Below are positions 24,498-32,000 of a DNA stretch of 32,000 nt, in pieces; position 1 is the stretch's first letter, and every line of letters starts with the position of its first letter. A program made the translations under genes and the position numbers. Below the pieces are notes generated by a model, which saw only the letters and a program-made list of their open reading frames with translations, searched no databases and was not told the DNA's origin. The stretch is from Pseudanabaena cinerea FACHB-1277 (GTDB taxonomy: Bacteria; Cyanobacteriota; Cyanobacteriia; Pseudanabaenales; Pseudanabaenaceae): contig NZ_JACJPY010000028.1 in NCBI RefSeq assembly GCF_014696345.1, positions 19,151 through 51,150 of the forward strand, written 5' to 3'.

Positions 24498-25529
24498 ATG
24501 CTGAAAAAGCTAAGGATTAAATATTTACTGGTAGCTCTCATGGCAGCGATCGCCACCATTGCGATCGCTATATTTCCAGCGCTGACGATGGGAAATGGAC
24601 TGCTACAGGCGCAAAACCAACCTCAAGCAAGCCCCACCTTGGCTCAAGGCAAGCCAGTAGAAACAAACCTAACCACGGTGAGTTTGCAAAATGCAGGGCT
24701 CCAGTTACAAGAAGTTGCACAGGGCATCTATGCACTGGTTGCCAGCACTGATTTCCCCCCCGCCAGCCCCACCGTTGCCATTTGTAACGGCGGCTTCATC
24801 ATCGGCAGCGATGGCGTATTGGTGATTGATCCTTTTCAAACCCCTGAACTAGGTAATTTGATGATTGCAGTGGTCAAATCCCTGACCGATAAACCTATCA
24901 AATATGTACTAAATACCCATTATCACTTTGATCACACTGGTGGCAATGCTACCTTTGCGAGGCTTGATATTCCCGTTATGGGGCGGGGGGTGATTCGAGA
25001 ATATATCCAGAGTGGTAAGAATAATACGGCTGGAGTAACACCTCCGACGGTGATTATTAATAGCCAAACCGATCTCTGGCTAGGCGATCGCTTAGTACGC
25101 ATTGAGCGTGTTGATGGTCATTCCGCAGGAACTGATCTCGTTGCCTATGTGCCTGATGCTAAAATTCTATTCACTGGCGATATGGTTTTTAACAAGCGCA
25201 TTCCTTACACAGGCGACAGCGATATCCGTCAATGGCAAGGTAGTTTGTATCGCCTCATTGCCACCTATCCAGAGGCTAAAGTTGTGCCTGGACATGGTGA
25301 TGTGACTGATGTTACGGGGCTACAAGCACAACAGGCTTATTTTAGTTGGCTAGAGCGCACTGCCCTAGAATGGAAATCTCAGATCTTATCTAAAGAACAG
25401 GTATTGGAGAAGTTTGCGAAGGTTCCTGATGCTTATAAGGATTTCAAATTTAAGGCAATTTATCCTCTGAATTTAGAATCTGCCTATGAGCAGTTTACGC
25501 GCAGTAAAACAATTCCTCTAATTCCTTAA
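24498..25529 (+). CDS. secreted or membrane-anchored MBL-fold metallo-hydrolase
   Basis: HYHFDHTGG (the HxHxDH motif) and later GHG/GDM histidine and aspartate ligands. An N-terminal hydrophobic signal-like segment reads LLVALMAAIATIAIAIFPAL. Confidence 0.8.
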   Translation: MLKKLRIKYLLVALMAAIATIAIAIFPALTMGNGLLQAQNQPQASPTLAQGKPVETNLTTVSLQNAGLQLQEVAQGIYALVASTDFPPASPTVAICNGGFIIGSDGVLVIDPFQTPELGNLMIAVVKSLTDKPIKYVLNTHYHFDHTGGNATFARLDIPVMGRGVIREYIQSGKNNTAGVTPPTVIINSQTDLWLGDRLVRIERVDGHSAGTDLVAYVPDAKILFTGDMVFNKRIPYTGDSDIRQWQGSLYRLIATYPEAKVVPGHGDVTDVTGLQAQQAYFSWLERTALEWKSQILSKEQVLEKFAKVPDAYKDFKFKAIYPLNLESAYEQFTRSKTIPLIP

Positions 25530-25562
25530 TAGAGATTTTTAAAATCTCAACTAATAAAAAGC

Positions 25563-25796
25563 TTGAAATCATTACCAAGAAATAATTTCAAGTTCTTTAT
25601 GATTAGGAATAAGAATTTATTAACCCCAAAGGTGATAGAGGCTAAGTACACCTTTCCACCTTTGGACATTGATTGCAGAAGTTGTTTTAATTATTCCTTA
25701 AATGTTTCGGGTCTTTTGGATACTGGCTCTAGTGTTAATGTCTTACCTTATGACATGGGGTTAGCATTAGGTGCAATCTTGGAAAATCAAAGCTAA
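25563..25796 (+). pseudogene. truncated retropepsin-like aspartic protease fragment
   Basis: GLLDTGSSVNVLPYDMGLALG carries the D-T-G-S active-site signature. The ORF has a TTG start, ends about 25 aa after the motif and abuts the IS remnant. It is AT-rich. Confidence 0.35.
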
Positions 25797-25858
25797 TATA
25801 AAGCTAATATTATGTTTCACGACACCTGAAGCTGTGAACAAAGTGCTAAGAGCCTTAA

Positions 25859-26748
25859 TTGAGTCTATGCCTCAATCATCAGTTGGCTAAAACTATGGTA
25901 ATTGCTCAACCTAGAAAAATCAAAGAAAAAAAGGTCGAAAAGTGGGAAAATGACAGGATGAAAGAACTTCCCAATCTCAAGGAGCTAACAGAAGAAGTGA
26001 AAGAAGCCTTGATAGTGGAATTATGGGAAAAAACACAAAAGTTAGAGAAACCGCTAGAAAAGAAACCAAAGAAAACGTCAAAAAACTCCAGCCTACCACC
26101 AGCGCGAGGATTTAAAGCTCAAACAAAAAGTGGAAGAGAAAGGGAATGACCAGCAGCGAACTAGTAGCATAGGGAGAGAAGGAGGAGTTCGTCCGTTGAG
26201 TGAAGCTCCAGACCAAATCATCAAAGCCACCGTAAAAAGTTGTGCAGAATGATGCAGCAGATGATGTCGGAAGTGTTCGGATTAGAGATTTCAGAAGGGG
26301 CGATCGCCAACCTGCTGATGCGCGTGCAAGGACAACTAGAGAATGAGGTAGAGAATATCCTCAAAGGAGTCAGAAGCGCTCGACTGATATGCAGTGATGA
26401 AACAAGTGCGAGAGTAAATGGCAAAAACGAGTGGGAATGGGTATTTCAAAACGACCAAGTCTGTTTTCATATCATCCGTCCATCCAGAGGTGGTGATGTC
26501 TTCAAAGAAGTGGTGGCAGAACACCAGCCCGAAGTATGGGTATCAGACTTATATAGCTCCCAGAAGACACATCCCGCCATTGGGGTCGAGATTTATTTGC
26601 GATGGTTCGCTCTATTGTTAATACTGGAAAGAGACATGGTTTATCCACTTTTGAATCGATTCTTGCTGCTTTGAATCCCCTCAAATCCCTATTTTCTCTA
26701 ATGCGATCGCCCAGATTGACTTCACGCTTGGCAGTGTTGACAGCTTGA
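25859..26748 (+). mobile_element. decayed IS66-family transposase (frameshifted, with internal deletions)
   Basis: Four fragments lie in different frames. (1) 25859-26149: LKELTEEVKEALIVELWEK...KKTSKNSSLPP, the IS66 N-terminal coiled coil. (2) About 26150-26255: IGREGGVRPLSEAPDQIIKATVKSCAE. (3) 26240-26580: MSEVFGLEISEGAIANLL...ICSDETSARVNGKNEWEWVF...VWVSDLYSSQ, the DDE core. (4) 26557-26748: FAMVRSIVNTGKRHGLSTFESILAALNP, the C-terminus. About 0.9 kb remains of an expected ~1.5 kb. I could not identify terminal inverted repeats. Confidence 0.7.
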
Positions 26749-26856
26749 GTTAGTAATTTACCTAGCGATGCCCCCGACATTAATTTTGACCCGTTTAATA
26801 GGCAACAGGAGCGATCAAGGCAAAATTACCAACGATCGCCCCTTTTGCTAATGTTT

Positions 26857-27909
26857 TTAAGGGGCAGGATTGAAATAGCGATAATGGACTTCTTCAATGG
26901 CGGTCAAAATTTCGGCGCTAAGCTGCACCTTGGCGCTGTCGATGTTTTCTTGCAGTTGTTCCATTTGGGTTGCGCCAATAATTGTACTAGACACAAACCA
27001 ACGACTGCGGACAAAGGCGAGGGCAAGTTGCACGGGTGATAGCGCATATTGCTGAGCGATCGCCACATAATCAGCGATCGCCAAATTTACATTCGTTTTA
27101 TAGTAGCGCTGTCCAAAATTAGGAAATAGCGCCATACGGCTATTGGGGGGAGTGGTTTGCAAATATTTACCCGACAAGCGCCCAAAGGCAAGGGGGCTGT
27201 AAGCCAGTAACCCCACATTTTCGCGATAGCAAGCTTCCGCAAGGTTAATTTCAAAGGTGCGATTAACGAGGTTATAGGCATTTTGAATAGAGATAATTTG
27301 CGGTAAATTATGGATTTTGGCAAGGTGACTAAATTCACAAATGCCCCATGCTGTCTCATTGCTAACGCCGACATAGCGAATTTTCCCCGCCTTGATCAAA
27401 TCTGCAAAGGTTTCTAACTGCTCATGCAAACTCACCATTTCGCGCTCCTGTGCAGGATTAAACTCCACCTGCCCAAACATCGGTACATTGCGATCGGGCC
27501 AATGGATTTGATAGAGATCGATATAGTCAATTTGCAGACGCTTGAGGCTGTCTTCAACCGCTTGCAATACATTCTTCCGACTGAGGGCGGCGATCGCATC
27601 ATCTCGCAACCATTTATAATTGCGCCCCGTGCCAATGATTTTGGTGGCGATAATTAATTTGTCTCTTTGGGCTTTGATGTGGGGCTGCGCCAACCACTCA
27701 CCCAGATACTGCTCTGTCGTGCCTTGGGTTTGGGCATTGGGCGGCACGGGATACATTTCTGCCGTATCAATAAAATTTATACCTTGGGCGATCGCATAGT
27801 CTAGTTGTTGATGTGCCTCAGCGATCGAGTTTTGCTGTCCATAGGTCATCGTCCCTAGACAGATCTCGGATACTAAGAGTTCACTATTGCCAAGTTGGTT
27901 GTATTGCAT
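26857..27909 (-). CDS. NADP-dependent aldo/keto reductase (Tas-like)
   Basis: The ATG at 27909 gives MQYNQLGNSELLVSEICLGTMTYG. Also present: FIDTAEMY, DLYQIHWPD and VGVSNETAWG. The upstream extension in the ORF track is discounted. Confidence 0.85.
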   Translation of the reverse strand: MQYNQLGNSELLVSEICLGTMTYGQQNSIAEAHQQLDYAIAQGINFIDTAEMYPVPPNAQTQGTTEQYLGEWLAQPHIKAQRDKLIIATKIIGTGRNYKWLRDDAIAALSRKNVLQAVEDSLKRLQIDYIDLYQIHWPDRNVPMFGQVEFNPAQEREMVSLHEQLETFADLIKAGKIRYVGVSNETAWGICEFSHLAKIHNLPQIISIQNAYNLVNRTFEINLAEACYRENVGLLAYSPLAFGRLSGKYLQTTPPNSRMALFPNFGQRYYKTNVNLAIADYVAIAQQYALSPVQLALAFVRSRWFVSSTIIGATQMEQLQENIDSAKVQLSAEILTAIEEVHYRYFNPAP

Positions 27910-28026
27910 ATGGTTTAGACTCCTGTTAGTCACTTGTCGCTTTAATTTCGGCAGTGATGCTTTAGCATAAATAATCTGTAATGCTTGCACAAAAAGGGGC
28001 AGCGATCTTTAATCCATAAGATAAAA

Positions 28027-28056
28027 TTGCAATTTTTGTTCTTGAGAGCATAAACT
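28027..28056 (+). promoter_or_regulatory. candidate sigma70-type promoter for the 28071-31622 gene set
   Basis: TTGCAA (28027-28032), an 18-nt spacer, then TAAACT (28051-28056), ending 14 nt before the first ATG. This is hexamer matching by eye only. Confidence 0.25.
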
Positions 28057-28070
28057 TTCGAGCAGAATCA

Positions 28071-28265
28071 ATGAAGCAAATTACGCCATTGGGTAGCGTC
28101 TTAAAGGAAGAGTTGCAGGAAGCAATCAGTGATGCTTATGGAGTGGCTCTATCAGGTGTGGCGGCTGAGGCTTTTGGTGGTTGCTATACGGTTACACAAT
28201 TAGCGGCTATGGTCGATCTCGATAGGATTATCAATCAGGCGATCGCTTTAGTTTCTAATAACTAA
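28071..28265 (+). CDS. small hypothetical protein (64 aa)
   Basis: ATG start with a HIP1 site inside. It lies 37 nt upstream of the next ORF on the same strand. I recognise no domain, and coding status is uncertain. Confidence 0.4.
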   Translation: MKQITPLGSVLKEELQEAISDAYGVALSGVAAEAFGGCYTVTQLAAMVDLDRIINQAIALVSNN

Positions 28266-28302
28266 GATAAAATCAAGGCAATGGTAAATCATTGGTGCAA
28301 TT

Positions 28303-28836
28303 ATGGAAGTTATTACTCCAATTCTGGCTGCGATCAAAATCATTGTTGACTCTGGGGTATTGAGCAAGGTCGGTGATGGTGCAATTGCTAAAGTTGGTGA
28401 AAATTCTGTAGATTTTGTCAGCAACTTGGCTCAGAGATTATGGTATGTGCTAGTACAGAAAGCTCCTGATACTAAGAAATGGGGTACAGGTAAAGAGATC
28501 GATTATCAGCAAGCGGTAATTGATGTGGAGGCGATCGCCTCCGATCCTGAAGTTGCGAAGTTGTTGGATGAGGTGCGATCGCTACTATCAAGTAATCAAG
28601 AACTAGCGGCTAAGGTTGAGGCTTTGCAAAAACAAATCGAGCAGTTAACCAATACAGCAAACAATCCCCAAAGTACACAAGTGGCTCTTGAGTATTTTGA
28701 AGCAGGAGAGCTAGAGGGAGAAATTAGGCAAGAAAAGCCTCAGAGCGATCGCCAACAGAATACGGAGCAAGTGGCAGCAAGGAATGTCAAAGTAGCGGGT
28801 AAGGCAGTAATTACAATCAATCAGAAAATAAATTGA
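28303..28836 (+). CDS. hypothetical protein: hydrophobic/Gly-rich N-terminal helix, coiled coil, and a C-terminal I-x-I-x-Q-x-I-N tail (candidate membrane-targeting effector, Bell/HeLo-like by architecture)
   Basis: 177 aa. The N-terminus is MEVITPILAAIKIIVDSGVLSKVGDGAIAKVGE. The central region has heptad-like sequence (EVAKLLDEVRSLLSSNQELAAKVEALQKQIEQL). The C-terminus is NVKVAGKAVITINQKIN, directly followed by the stop. The stop TGA shares a base with the next ATG. The Bell/HeLo analogy rests on architecture only, not on demonstrated homology. Confidence 0.6.
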   Translation: MEVITPILAAIKIIVDSGVLSKVGDGAIAKVGENSVDFVSNLAQRLWYVLVQKAPDTKKWGTGKEIDYQQAVIDVEAIASDPEVAKLLDEVRSLLSSNQELAAKVEALQKQIEQLTNTANNPQSTQVALEYFEAGELEGEIRQEKPQSDRQQNTEQVAARNVKVAGKAVITINQKIN

Positions 28837-29198
28837 TGCTTATGAATACATTGATACCTCAATCGTCTGCGCTTGGGCTTGCCTTTGGGCTTTCCTTAAA
28901 TTTACCAAAGCAACAGATTCAGGCATTTTGCCAGCGTTGGCAAATTCAGGAATTATATGTGTTTGGCTCGATCTTGCGGAATGATTTTCGTGAGGATAGT
29001 GATGTTGATTTTGTTTATAGGTTAGAGCCGATCGCTTCGTGGAGTTTTGGCAATTTGCTGGATGCGGAAAAGGAGTTATCGGCAATTGTGGGGCGTGAGG
29101 TGGATTTGGTTAGTCAAAGAAGTATTGATCGCGATCGCAATTGGCTGCGTAAGCAAAACATTCTCAATTCAATGAGGTTAATCTATGTCGCAAAATAG
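28836..29198 (+). CDS. mntA: MNT-type nucleotidyltransferase antitoxin
   Basis: VFGSILRNDFREDSDVDF matches GS-x10-DxD, the minimal nucleotidyltransferase motif. The ATG at 28836 overlaps the upstream TGA (TGATG); the ORF-track TTG at 28833 is less likely. It overlaps hepT by 14 nt. Confidence 0.85.
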   Translation: MLMNTLIPQSSALGLAFGLSLNLPKQQIQAFCQRWQIQELYVFGSILRNDFREDSDVDFVYRLEPIASWSFGNLLDAEKELSAIVGREVDLVSQRSIDRDRNWLRKQNILNSMRLIYVAK

Positions 29199-29541
29199 AG
29201 ACCCTGAATCCCTTCTAGATATTTACAATTACGGACAACAAGCGATCGCTTTTGTGGCAAGTCTGACTCAAGAAGAATTTGAAGAAGATGATAAATCGAT
29301 CGCCGCAGTCATGTATGTAGTTGCCATTATGGGAGAAGCAACGAAGCGTTTATCAAAGGAGTTTCGTCAACAGTATGACTTTATTCCTTGGGGAGACATA
29401 GCGGGAATGCGCGATCGGCTAGTCCATGATTATAAAAACATCGATTTGGATATTTTGTGGGATATTGTAAATGTGGAAATCCCTAGACTCTTAGCACAAA
29501 TTCAGCCAATGATACCAAGTTTTGAGGAGCGGTCGGAATGA
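29185..29541 (+). CDS. hepT: HepT-like (DUF86/HEPN) RNase toxin
   Basis: 118 aa. The R-x4-H-x-Y HEPN motif is intact as RDRLVHDY (29410-29433). It sits immediately downstream of, and overlapping, an MNT gene, which is the canonical pair order. Confidence 0.85.
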   Translation: MSQNRDPESLLDIYNYGQQAIAFVASLTQEEFEEDDKSIAAVMYVVAIMGEATKRLSKEFRQQYDFIPWGDIAGMRDRLVHDYKNIDLDILWDIVNVEIPRLLAQIQPMIPSFEERSE

Positions 29542-31622
29542 GCGATCAATATAATCAAACTGGGATTAGCGATTCGACTTTTGGCGACAATGCTCACATT
29601 GAGATTAAGCAGGAGATTAACGCGCCACGCCAGAAGCAACCCATTCCTGACAATGTACCTGTCGCTTCGCCGAACTTTGTGGGGCGGGTGCAGGAGCTTA
29701 AAGATATTTATGCCAAGTTGCAAACAGGGCAGGGGGTGAGTGTCTGTGCGGTGGAGGGCATGGGCGGATTGGGCAAAAGCGAACTGGCGCGGCGCTATGC
29801 TTGGGAATATCGACAGGAATATGCGGCGCGGTATTGGTTTTCGTTGCGGGGGGTGGGGTTGGCGCAGGCGGTGGTGACTTTCGCGAGTCGCTATCTGGAT
29901 TTGCCAGAGGTGATGCAGTCGCAAACCGTAGAGGCGCAAGCGGAATGGTGTTGGCAAAATTGGACACCGACTGAGGGGAAGGTGTTGGTGATTTTGGATG
30001 ATGTGACCGATCTCAAGAGTATTCCGCAACAGGCGCGCCCCTTGGCGGATCGCTTTCAGATTTTGGTGACGACCCGCAAGCGGAAGTTGAGTCCGTATTT
30101 TGCGGATATTCCTTTGAATGTGATTTCTGAGGATGAGGCGTTGGAGTTGTTGAGGAAGTTTTTGGGCGCGGCGCGGGTGAACCGTGAGGAGGACGCAGCA
30201 AAGGCAATTTGTGAAGATTTGGGTTATTTGCCCTTGGGTGTGGAGTTGGCGGCGCGATATTTGCAACTGGATGAGGATCTGTCGCTGGGCGATTATCAAC
30301 AACGCTTAAAGATCACCGATGAGTCGTTGGCTTTGCAGGAAACGGAAGAAATTAATGCGGGGCGAGGTGTGATCGCGGCGTTTGAGTTGAGTTGGCAGGA
30401 GTTGAGCGCGAGTACGGCGAAGGCGGCGATGTTGTTGGGGTTGTTTGCGCCTGCGGACATTGCTTGGGGTTTGGTGGAGGAGATTGCGGCGGATTTAATC
30501 GAGGTGGCGGATCTGCGGGAGGGGAGAAAGCAGCTTAATAATTTGTATCTGATTAAGGCTGTGGATCAAGAGCGCACAAGATTTGCGATGCATTCGCTGA
30601 CTAGGGAGTTTTTGCAATGGAAACTCGCTCAAGACTCGGATACTAATCGTCTATTTCGAGAAACCTTTGTTACCAGTTTGCTCAACAAAGCCAAACAAAT
30701 ACCCCAATCACCAACGCGAGATCTGATTGCCGCAGTAGCTCCCGCAATTCCGCATTTAGATATGTTGAGCCGTGAAATGCTCGATGATATTCCCAATCTT
30801 GAAGAAGATTTAATTTGGGCTTTTATTGGAATTGCAAGATTCTATGAAGGACAATCCCTATATTCATCTGCAATGCTTTTTTATCAAAACTGTCTTGAAA
30901 ATATTAAATCTTACCTAGGATTAGAACATCCTACGGTAGGAACTATCCTAGAAAATATGGCTAAAATAGACACATTGCAAGGTGATTTTGGCAACGCAGA
31001 AACTCGATCACTAGAAGCAATTTCTGTGTTCAAAAAAGTTCTGGGAAACTATCATCAATATGTTGCTTATAGTTTGAATAGTTTAGCAAATTGCTATTAT
31101 GAGCAATGCAGGTATAAAAAAGCTGAAGAGTGTTTATTACAATCCCAAGAAATTATTCGTATTACCTTAGGAGAAGATAGTTATCTATTTGCTGAAAACC
31201 TTTCTAATCTTGCCAATCTTTATCGAATACAACAAAAATTTATCGAAGCAGAAAGTCTATTTCTTAATGCCTTTCGTATTTTAAGAACCCAATTCTATGA
31301 TGATGATTTGCGGATTGCAACTATCCTTAATAATTTGGCTGAATTATATAAAGATCAAAAGAAATATAAAGAAGCAGAGACTCTATTTTCTCGTTCACTT
31401 TCTATTTGGTATCAAAATTTAGAATCATGCCATATTGATATTGCTCTTGGACTCAATAACTTGGCAGAATGTTATCGATTACAAAATAAGAATGGGAGTG
31501 AAGTAAAATTTCTTTATTTAAAAGCACAAGAAATTATGGAAAAAGCATTAGGTGAAAATCATATAAAGGTAAAAATAATTCGAGCAAATATGCGTCTTTT
31601 TCTTAAAGGACAGAACCTTTAA
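29538..31622 (+). CDS. STAND NTPase: short N-terminal motif + NB-ARC + TPR repeats (bacterial NLR-like)
   Basis: P-loop GMGGLGKS (29757-29780), Walker B VLVILDDV (29982-30005), a GLPL-like motif LGYLPLGVELAARYL, then about six 42-aa TPR_12-like repeats (for example LNNLAELYKDQKKYKEAETLFSRSLSI). Only about 47 aa precede the NTPase domain. The ATG overlaps the hepT stop as ATGA. Confidence 0.9.
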   Translation: MSDQYNQTGISDSTFGDNAHIEIKQEINAPRQKQPIPDNVPVASPNFVGRVQELKDIYAKLQTGQGVSVCAVEGMGGLGKSELARRYAWEYRQEYAARYWFSLRGVGLAQAVVTFASRYLDLPEVMQSQTVEAQAEWCWQNWTPTEGKVLVILDDVTDLKSIPQQARPLADRFQILVTTRKRKLSPYFADIPLNVISEDEALELLRKFLGAARVNREEDAAKAICEDLGYLPLGVELAARYLQLDEDLSLGDYQQRLKITDESLALQETEEINAGRGVIAAFELSWQELSASTAKAAMLLGLFAPADIAWGLVEEIAADLIEVADLREGRKQLNNLYLIKAVDQERTRFAMHSLTREFLQWKLAQDSDTNRLFRETFVTSLLNKAKQIPQSPTRDLIAAVAPAIPHLDMLSREMLDDIPNLEEDLIWAFIGIARFYEGQSLYSSAMLFYQNCLENIKSYLGLEHPTVGTILENMAKIDTLQGDFGNAETRSLEAISVFKKVLGNYHQYVAYSLNSLANCYYEQCRYKKAEECLLQSQEIIRITLGEDSYLFAENLSNLANLYRIQQKFIEAESLFLNAFRILRTQFYDDDLRIATILNNLAELYKDQKKYKEAETLFSRSLSIWYQNLESCHIDIALGLNNLAECYRLQNKNGSEVKFLYLKAQEIMEKALGENHIKVKIIRANMRLFLKGQNL

Positions 31623-31760
31623 AATTAAAGTAAAATGCAGAAAATCGAAATCGCTTTATCAACAAGCCCTTGTTTTGAGGCAAAACCATTGTTGAGCAAT
31701 AGATGTATAAGGCTTACTTGGTTGCTACAATTGCTTTAGTCTCAAAAAAACCTAAAGGCA

Positions 31761-32000
31761 ATGCAAATAAATAAGTTTGTGGCAATTGGCGCGATCTCTT
31801 TAGTATCTATCAGTGTGATCGCATTTCTCAATAATGTTAAATATCAGGAAGAGAAAAAGGCAGCACGGCTAGGGCTAGGAGGCGCTAAAGTACGATGTTC
31901 CATGCTTTCATTTAATATCAGAGATGTCGAATCTTGGAAAGAGGCGGTAAAAGCTCCGTCAAATCAAGAAAGGGAAAAACATAAACAGTATTTACTCTGA
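31761..32000 (+). CDS. small hypothetical membrane-anchored protein (79 aa)
   Basis: ATG start, hydrophobic N-terminal segment FVAIGAISLVSISVIAFL, stop at 31998-32000. It is AT-rich with no HIP1 site. Coding status is uncertain. Confidence 0.3.
   Translation: MQINKFVAIGAISLVSISVIAFLNNVKYQEEKKAARLGLGGAKVRCSMLSFNIRDVESWKEAVKAPSNQEREKHKQYLL

Follow-up and report, generated by a model that had tools for sequence, protein, structure and literature searches.

What kind of system is formed by a run of tightly packed genes in the cyanobacterium Pseudanabaena cinerea FACHB-1277, and what is a toxin–antitoxin (TA) pair doing in the middle of it? The stretch of DNA we analyzed, referred to throughout as the window, is 32,000 nt long and contains four consecutive plus-strand genes for a 177-aa helical protein, the nucleotidyltransferase MNT, the HEPN RNase HepT and an NB-ARC-TPR protein of the NLR type. 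An initial annotation of this DNA treated the combination as unrecognized and proposed a single abortive-infection module in which the NLR would control two killing arms. We find that the core of the locus is not a new NLR system but one of a published kind, a Bell/BASS-NLR amyloid-signaling pair; Dyrka et al., 2020 (Table S2), already list close Pseudanabaena relatives. From sequence comparison we put at about 70% the probability of the overall picture developed below, that of a Bell/BASS-NLR cell-death pair carrying a self-contained TA cassette nested between its two members, rather than a specific effector under NLR control.

The Bell-domain protein and its NLR partner

No model in Pfam, NCBIfam or PADLOC matches the 177-aa protein. 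It belongs to a family of at least 140 members that comes almost exclusively from Pseudanabaena, each genome encoding several paralogues, and the matches listed by a broader-profile homology search again came mostly from this genus. In an alignment of the family, an N-terminal domain of some 115 aa is conserved, and the C-terminal tails beyond it sort into discrete classes. Family member P0071, which matches the 177-aa protein with E = 6e-26, is BBC24761.1, which Dyrka et al., 2020 (Table S2; bioRxiv 10.1101/2020.01.06.895854) list on the Bell side of a BASS3 pair. Other tails in the family are of the published sister classes BASS5 (Pseudanabaena SR411, OYQ63525.1-type; Dyrka et al., 2020) and BASS4.

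The 177-aa protein begins with a hydrophobic helix (MEVITPILAAIKIIVDSGVL) and continues as a helical domain to about residue 120, a low-complexity linker and a C-terminal motif. Across the family the N-terminus reads MEP[IVL] and leads into the hydrophobic helix, with M[ED]P/x[ILV] present in 22 of 24 diverse members. Such a ‘MEPIS’-type N-terminus, acidic at position 2-3, is described for the cell-death domains Bell, Hell and Bab (Ibarlosa et al., 2024, bioRxiv 10.1101/2024.11.07.622273). An AlphaFold2 (AF2) model of the N-domain is all-helical, with six helices, at low confidence (mean predicted local distance difference test, pLDDT, 68; predicted template-modeling score, pTM, 0.52), and a search of PDB sequences with the family profile returned coiled-coil noise only. 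We therefore identify the 177-aa protein as a Bell-domain protein on the basis of homology and the N-terminal signature, and not of fold. In the window subfamily the region of the N-terminal helix (28303-28400) is longer by about 11 inserted residues (MEVITPILAAIKIIVDSGVLSKVGDGAIAKVGEN as against MEPVSLLVGLLVIVGTGSLTKVGEN). The 5′ end may have been partly duplicated, as a 19-nt direct repeat here (28293-28311 and 28377-28395) suggests.

The partner gene encodes a protein with Pfam matches above the gathering cutoffs to NB-ARC (51.6 bits, aa 53-242) and TPR_12 (132 bits over four stretches), and its Walker B segment VLVILDD and a GYLPLG segment are visible in the sequence. The P-loop, Walker B and TPR repeats that the initial annotation had described in a STAND protein are borne out, the domains by Pfam and the P-loop and Walker B motifs by the sequence itself. 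Only 52 aa lie ahead of the NB-ARC domain and no effector is fused; the earlier proposal that an effector is supplied in trans by the 177-aa protein gains support from the adjacency of the two genes, which is conserved in about 35 related loci. The affinity to Avs-type systems that had been suggested did not hold up, as the only PADLOC model to match was a generic TPR model (E = 3.7e-4) and no Avs or bNACHT model did so. Two NCBIfam candidates were considered and rejected: the FxSxx-COOH TPR protein (NF040586) scored 190.6 bits against a cutoff of 300 and FxsA/FxsB-like neighbors are absent, while the partial match to AfsR, at 102.7 bits, was far below its cutoff of 1430.

Base composition within the NLR gene is a mosaic (29600-31620), with a GC content of 0.50-0.58 in the NB-ARC and helical part and 0.29-0.32 in the TPR part, compared with about 0.42 in the surroundings; this points to a recombinant sensor module. 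The TPR region of the window NLR is at most 44% identical to the TPRs of any related NLR among the loci we fetched, and about 30% identical to those of the locus L013 discussed below.

The motif shared by the Bell and NLR proteins

The two proteins have in common a segment of about 24 aa, placed at the C-terminus of the Bell protein and near the N-terminus of the NLR (Table 1). The two copies align without gaps and both end in Q-x-I-N. An ungapped profile is the better test of such a match because the motifs align without gaps, and full-length, ungapped profiles were accordingly built from other loci only, with the 23,752 positions of the window as an empirical null. With the Bell-side profile, the C-terminus of the window Bell protein ranked first and NLR residues 5-28 ranked second of the 23,752 positions (33.4 for the latter, next best 19.6). 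With the NLR-side profile, residues 5-28 of the NLR ranked first and the Bell C-terminus second (39.6 and 35.9, next 15.7). The profile scan of the window found the motif in neither MNT nor HepT.

For comparison across genomes, 45 genome and metagenome loci were fetched with the family profile (designated by L and a number) and further ones were added from exact look-ups. A same-strand NB-ARC gene lies downstream of the Bell gene in about 35 loci. By eye, each tail class resembles the N-terminus of its own NLR, and the class of the Bell tail equals the class of the NLR motif in 22 of the 25 non-redundant loci, where permutation gives a mean of 7.3 (standard deviation 2.2). None of 100,000 permutations reached 22, a frequency that is not a strict probability since the loci are related to one another. 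Mismatched classes occur in three loci only (L014, L034 and L051). The most telling single case for the co-switching of the motifs is L013. Between residue 33 and roughly residue 430, its NLR and that of the window share 91% identity, yet its NLR motif and partner tail are both BASS3.

The motif of the window, which we term class A, follows a pattern similar to that of BASS4 (Q-x-x-L-x-N-V-x-V-x-G...Q), and in L051 a Bell tail of class BASS4 goes with an NLR of the A′ type. In our judgment class A is a BASS4-like variant.

Some loci present the motif in other arrangements. A 174-aa protein of L034 (L034:996-1520) carries three motifs in tandem (BASS4-like, BASS5 and BASS3) and an N-domain that is not of the Bell type; its gene shares the space between the BASS5 Bell gene and the BASS3 NLR gene of this locus with HicAB, and the protein may be an adaptor that bridges the classes. 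In a Pseudanabaena bin (L018:3380-3680) and a Limnothrix bin (L024:5640-5920), the Bell open reading frame (ORF) ends in TGA CTA and the NB-ARC frame continues in-frame, with the P-loop only 48-52 codons past the stop and no NLR-side motif. L018 also has no start codon ahead of its FVGRD box. These two loci may represent UGA read-through to a Bell-motif-NLR fusion, in which the motif would be encoded once, or an all-in-one gene split by a nonsense codon.

The cassette between the Bell and NLR genes

In the window the Bell and NLR genes are 701 nt apart, and this spacer is filled by MNT and HepT. MNT matches Pfam NTP_transf_2 (57 bits, cutoff 21), the PADLOC candidate system PDC-S09 (E = 6e-20) and PDB entry 1wot (E = 2e-5), and it contains the catalytic motif GSILRNDFREDSDVD (GSx10DxD); its score against NCBIfam MntA_antitoxin, 44.9 bits, is below the cutoff of 60. 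HepT matches Pfam HepT-like (85 bits, cutoff 23.5), scores 38.4 bits against NCBIfam HepT_toxin (cutoff 60) and has no match in the PDB. Its Rx4HxY motif, RDRLVHDY at aa 76-83 (nt 29410-29433), includes Tyr83 as a candidate for AMPylation and is kept in the 74-84%-identical relatives that occupy the same slot. The pair looks intact and is predicted to be a type VII TA system, with MNT as the antitoxin and HepT as the HEPN RNase toxin.

MNT-HepT lies between Bell and NLR in at least eight distinct loci and belongs there to two lineages. The lineage of the window is found in L001 and L026, in L049/L050 (HepT 74% identical) and in L051 (84%), and the second, 39% identical, in L006, L028, L033, L046 and L047. 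The nearest stand-alone relative found is a pair among housekeeping genes of Nostoc sp. PCC 7107, whose HepT is 63% identical to that of the window. No direct or inverted repeats of the kind expected from a recent insertion flank MNT-HepT beyond HIP1-type GCGATCGC sites. Pseudanabaena sp. ELA607 has an MNT-HepT of the window type (82% identity) that directly follows a DUF29 gene with no Bell gene present (L046:4188-5357 and L047:836-2124), is followed in L047 by a 40-aa ORF, and lies directly upstream of a complete DUF29-Bell-MNT-HepT-NLR locus with the second MNT-HepT lineage; it looks like a decayed tandem copy.

The same slot holds other genes in other loci. Its occupants are MNT-HepT, RelB-like plus ParE, HicA plus HicB, HicB plus HicA, a DUF29 gene of 141-144 aa, combinations of these and an uncharacterized minus-strand pair; all identities but that of the last are above Pfam gathering cutoffs. 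At least four TA families, together with DUF29, have been spliced into this position, apparently in translational coupling, and the junctions measure -26 to +14 nt for every cassette type and are seamless in all lineages. Decayed cassettes also occur: L003 retains RelB alone, L011, L037 and L055 retain HicB alone, and L032 and L036 have a remnant of ParE. Almost every Pseudanabaena pair has its slot filled, whereas out-group pairs overlap directly; the four pairs without a spacer are L018 (Pseudanabaena), L022 (Crocosphaera), L024 (Limnothrix) and L044 (a metagenome contig). A match to a system already described, which the earlier proposal listed as refuting it, does exist for the core. Neighborhood conservation was another of its checks, and the outcome is divided: the Bell-NLR order recurs in about 35 loci, but MNT-HepT is absent from most of them and other cassettes stand in its place.

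The minus-strand pair (159 aa and 115 aa, no Pfam match) occupies the slot in class-A loci (L030:1746-2129, L032:907-1738 and L036:2223-3054). The 3′ end of a ParE gene still stands before the NLR gene in the minus-strand-pair loci, which argues for cassette replacement in these three. In L016 (8213-9087), a minus-strand, two-ORF transposase with DDE and HTH parts lies in the slot beside HicBA and a HicB remnant, and the spacer has grown to 1.8 kb.

Published intergenic distances for Bell-NLR pairs can conceal such genes. Namely, the spacer of the ABRG5-3 BASS3 pair, recorded as ‘466 bp apart’, holds HicA-HicB. The word ‘toxin’ is not found in the main text of Dyrka et al., 2020, and TA systems go unmentioned in the Bell-domain papers we examined. 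A nested, interchangeable and seamlessly coupled slot for TA or DUF29 genes between Bell and NLR appears to be undescribed.

What co-varies with the cassette is the motif. Written as tail class, cassette and NLR motif class, the loci read B-DUF29-B in all cases with that cassette, D-HicAB-D, and A-MNT-HepT-A′ or A-RelB-ParE-A′. The NB-ARC backbones form four clades, each with several cassette types, and backbones that are 88-96% identical carry differing cassettes; an identity matrix of the TPRs is likewise independent of cassette type. The simplest reading of these comparisons is that the Bell tail, the cassette and the N-terminal motif of the NLR are exchanged as one block between NLR backbones. 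Such an exchange would keep the two motifs matched and carry the intervening genes along, and it counts against both a specific partnership of HepT with the NLR and a model of the ‘guarded TA’ type. The idea of a guard, in which the TPR sensor recognizes its own cassette, was rejected, as neither the TPR nor the NB-ARC identity matrix follows cassette type.

A number of results weigh against the overall picture of a Bell/BASS-NLR pair with a self-contained cassette. In a plain Smith-Waterman alignment the window Bell tail and NLR N-terminus score 24 (z = 1.0), a score reached by 165 of 1000 shuffles, and local HMMER profiles recovered the Bell-side motif (E = 1.4e-4) and missed the NLR-side one. 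The match within the window accordingly depends on the profile taken ungapped over its full length and on relatives that link the two motifs transitively. A string search of Table S2 of Dyrka et al., 2020, found no exact class A string. The AF2 model of the full-length 177-aa protein (pLDDT 41) is unusable, and the N-domain model found no PDB fold with E below 1.5 and no Bab or HeLo match. As for the cassette, the seamless junctions, the two retained MNT-HepT lineages and the near-absence from flanks argue that it is more than a passive passenger. Matches to cassette lineages (tblastn) number 39 in 19.7 kb of slots and 4 in 336 kb of flanks, counts that are biased because the query families were picked from slots and the loci are phylogenetically related. 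The argument from enrichment is also tempered by TA-rich surroundings, as PIN, PhdYeFM and two ParE genes lie just downstream of NLR genes in L049 (8229-9651) and L055 (8339-9535).

These features of the slot can be turned into an explanation of their own, according to which the cassette is a functional, generic third component and the space between Bell and NLR is dedicated to it in Pseudanabaena. The cassette could then set or gate the expression of the NLR by way of TA autoregulation and translational coupling, act as an anti-deletion lock on the motif pair, or provide a second layer of growth arrest in cells that lose the labile antitoxin after infection has shut down host expression. Occupation of nearly all Pseudanabaena slots against direct overlap in the out-groups would fit, as would the narrow range of junctions for all cassette types, the near-confinement of cassette lineages to slots, the intact catalytic motifs of the toxins, and the tie between cassette type and motif class; two MNT-HepT lineages sit in the slot, that of the window retained down to 74% identity, and the recruitment of the TA-derived DUF397 into NTPase conflict systems is a precedent (Kaur et al., 2020, PMC7159879). 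However, toxins of unrelated chemistry (HEPN RNase, ParE, HicA) and the non-TA DUF29 are interchangeable, some slots have decayed, and four pairs do without a spacer. Moreover, most published Bell-NLR pairs are at most 10 bp apart, TA pairs are common in the flanks too, and hitch-hiking as a block between the two co-adapted motif segments accounts for the linkage with no function required. We consider a functional third component rather unlikely on this evidence. That the slot is a dedicated plug-in site with TA and DUF29 genes as working third parts, possibly also in other cyanobacteria whose pairs are 200-900 bp apart, is a tentative proposal that we find possible but doubtful.

Much less probable is the two-armed abortive-infection module of the initial annotation, in which activation of the NLR would both engage the 177-aa protein and free HepT from MNT. 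Translational coupling of all four genes, the recurrence of MNT-HepT in this position and the match of MNT to a PADLOC defense candidate are in its favor, and to this extent the annotated pair stands: it looks intact and holds the same place in at least eight loci. A second arm under NLR control is unsupported, since no common motif or adaptor is present on MNT or HepT, about three quarters of homologous pairs have other cassettes instead, co-variation with the cassette is seen neither in the TPR nor in the NB-ARC part, and the window HepT is nearer to the stand-alone Nostoc pair than to the other slot lineage. We therefore judge this module very improbable. Mere fortuitous adjacency, with the NB-ARC-TPR protein acting as a regulator of the AfsR/SARP-like or FxSxx TPR kind and the other genes being unrelated island cargo beside an insertion sequence remnant, could draw on the two partial NCBIfam matches, the nearby IS66 fragment and the weak pairwise alignment of the motif pair. 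Yet both scores are far below their cutoffs, the NLR lacks a DNA-binding domain, and Bell-NLR adjacency and motif co-variation are conserved in about 35 loci spanning four NB-ARC clades, so that chance neighborhood is scarcely credible. For a Bell/BASS-NLR pair with a self-contained nested cassette, the most likely role of MNT-HepT is a generic one, be it stabilization of the locus by addiction or an independent backup, or no role at all.

Operon layout, proposed mechanism and known systems

The coordinates of the locus are collected in Table 1. Direct reading of the sequence confirmed the ORF boundaries, shared base and overlaps given in the initial annotation. The Bell stop codon TGA (28834-28836) and the MNT start codon ATG (28836-28838) have an A in common, with TTG 28833 and ATG 28842 as alternative MNT starts; MNT and HepT overlap by 14 nt (29185-29198), and the HepT stop and NLR start form ATGA at 29538-29541. 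The same tight packing is repeated in every related locus, which speaks for a conserved operon architecture and not for chance. A terminator scan found no terminator-like site between the four genes, and we consider that they are probably co-transcribed and translationally coupled. Promoter and terminator scans of the window gave no excess over shuffles, and an Rfam scan of 25000-32000 gave no match.

Table 1. Coordinates of genes, domains and motifs in the window.
Feature	Position	Strand	Description
orf64	28071-28265	+	64 aa, ORF read from sequence
Conserved leader	28263-28302	+	TAAGATAAAAT-CAAGGCAATGGTAAATCATTGGTGCAATT; putative -10 element and 5′ untranslated region/operator
Bell-domain protein gene	28303-28836	+	177 aa, MBD2150571.1
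Bell-side amyloid-signaling-type motif	28762-28833	+	aa 154-177, TEQVAARNVKVAGKAVITINQKIN, class A
MNT gene	28836-29198	+	120 aa counted from ATG 28836
HepT gene	29185-29541	+	118 aa
NB-ARC-TPR NLR gene	29538-31622	+	694 aa
NLR-side motif	29550-29621	+	aa 5-28, YNQTGISDSTFGDNAHIEIKQEIN
P-loop/Walker A	29757-29780	+	GMGGLGKS, aa 74-81, read from sequence
TPR sensor region	30855-31619	+	aa ~440-694; Pfam TPR_12/TPR_10/TPR_MalT

The flanks contain housekeeping genes, a divergent aldo/keto reductase (AKR) gene and the IS66 remnant noticed earlier, which we confirmed as a transposase fragment at 26240-26674. The 161-nt gap that had been given between the AKR gene and orf64 is correct if an internal ATG is taken as the AKR start; counted from the longest ORF (GTG 27990), it is 80 nt.

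The 64-aa ORF, which lies 37 nt upstream of the Bell gene, had been counted as a component of the system. By tblastn and open-frame comparison it corresponds to the C-terminal 64 codons of a DUF29-family gene, whose full-length relatives are 141-144 aa long, begin with MEELLELKGFLLSGN and match Pfam DUF29 at 31.5 bits (cutoff 22.5). We identify orf64, from these alignments, as a 5′-truncated and decayed DUF29 gene remnant and no component in its own right. The truncation is common to L026 and L027, and most relatives have an intact DUF29 gene directly upstream of Bell, in the slot, or in both places. No other gene accompanies the Pseudanabaena Bell-NLR pairs as constantly as this DUF29 lineage, which has two copies in some loci; it stands upstream of Bell in L002, L006, L012-L017, L023, L029, L035, L036, L038, L046, L049, L051 and L055 and in the slot in 13 loci. 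A sequence search of the PDB found no relative of DUF29, and we know of no function for it.

Between orf64 and Bell lies a leader of about 45 nt (...GATAAAATCAAAATATTGGTAAATCATTGGTGyAAATATG) that precedes nearly all Pseudanabaena Bell genes regardless of what is upstream. The window copy overlaps the stop codon of orf64, so the transcription unit probably begins after this ORF, with the leader as its likely start and as candidate promoter or operator of the Bell operon. The leader holds a -10-like GATAAAAT and a repeated ATTGGTAAATC unit, which is duplicated in L013 and L031, and the same element is found upstream of Bell genes in L002-L051. A second copy of the leader core TAAGATAAAAT occurs 43 nt upstream of orf64 (28017-28027).

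How might the locus work? In the HET-S/NWD2 and HELLP/PNT1 systems of Podospora anserina, the N-terminal motif of an NLR templates the prion-forming C-terminus of a pore-forming effector encoded by the neighboring gene, and the same templating logic is proposed here for the window pair. The operon is probably transcribed from the conserved leader just upstream of Bell and its genes translated in a coupled manner. By analogy with HET-S/NWD2 and with Bab/Agp, the NB-ARC-TPR protein would sense a ligand through its TPR array and oligomerize via its NTPase, and the clustered N-terminal motifs (aa 5-28) may then adopt a cross-beta fold that templates the C-terminal motif of the Bell protein (aa 154-177). 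The converted Bell protein would free its N-terminal hydrophobic helix to attack the membrane and kill the cell, the outcome being abortive infection or some other regulated cell death. MNT would meanwhile neutralize the HepT RNase autonomously as a type VII TA system. This cassette sits in a slot that Bell-NLR pairs of Pseudanabaena have in general, and it is presumably inherited as a block with both motif segments. HET-S/NWD2 differs from the window system in being eukaryotic and without an operon, and in its HeLo/HELL domains, NACHT-WD NLRs and other motif families.

A motif block that moves between NB-ARC backbones offers a naturally occurring test of how specific amyloid templating is, with five or six classes set on near-identical NLRs. 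If the cassettes regulate or stabilize the system, they would tie chromosomal TA modules to NLR immunity in a concrete and testable way and place DUF29 in a functional context for the first time. Were the cassette truly a third component, the locus would represent an undescribed three-part architecture joining TA biology to NLR/amyloid signaling.

Compared with known systems, the cassette resembles the type VII MntA-HepT pair (Shewanella SO_3165/3166; NF047751/NF047752) in having a GSx(n)DxD MNT upstream of, and overlapping, an Rx4HxY HEPN RNase of similar size. It differs in that both proteins fall below the NCBIfam equivalog cutoffs and in that the pair is nested in another operon and coupled at both ends. 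The NLR shares with Avs and bNACHT proteins a STAND NTPase, a repeat sensor at the C-terminus and, presumably, a part in defense or cell death; unlike them, it has no fused N-terminal effector and no matching PADLOC model, and its effector would be engaged in trans via a short motif.

Bab/Agp of E. coli ECOR25 provides an experimental precedent for abortive antiphage infection by amyloid signaling (Ibarlosa et al., 2024, bioRxiv 10.1101/2024.11.07.622273). There, too, a small helical effector has a ‘MEPIS’-type N-terminal helix and a C-terminal amyloid motif and is activated by an adjacent TPR-containing sensor bearing the same motif at its N-terminus, a relationship that in the window is predicted from sequence. 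The Bab/Agp effector has the shorter ‘Babybell’ domain and the motif BASS11, and no cassette lies between the genes; the window proteins have no detectable sequence or fold similarity to Bab.

The closest relatives are the Bell/BASS-NLR pairs themselves, of which the nearest listed are ABRG5-3 BBC24761.1/BBC24758.1 (BASS3) and SR411 OYQ63525.1/OYQ63523.1 (BASS5) (Dyrka et al., 2020). The window agrees with them in its homologous Bell domain, its collinear NB-ARC-TPR NLR, the motif common to both proteins and its filamentous cyanobacterial host. In the published set, 57% of pairs are at most 10 bp apart and pairing was accepted within 5 kb, a distance that includes the window genes (bioRxiv 10.1101/2020.01.06.895854). 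The window is unlike these pairs in the MNT-HepT genes that separate its two members and in its class A motif, of which no exact string was found in the published table. Heterologous prion and fibril assays of BASS1 and BASS3 are a precedent for the class. The core of the locus needs no new concept, and it adds to the Bell/BASS-NLR systems a cyanobacterial member with a motif that we assign to a BASS4-like variant.

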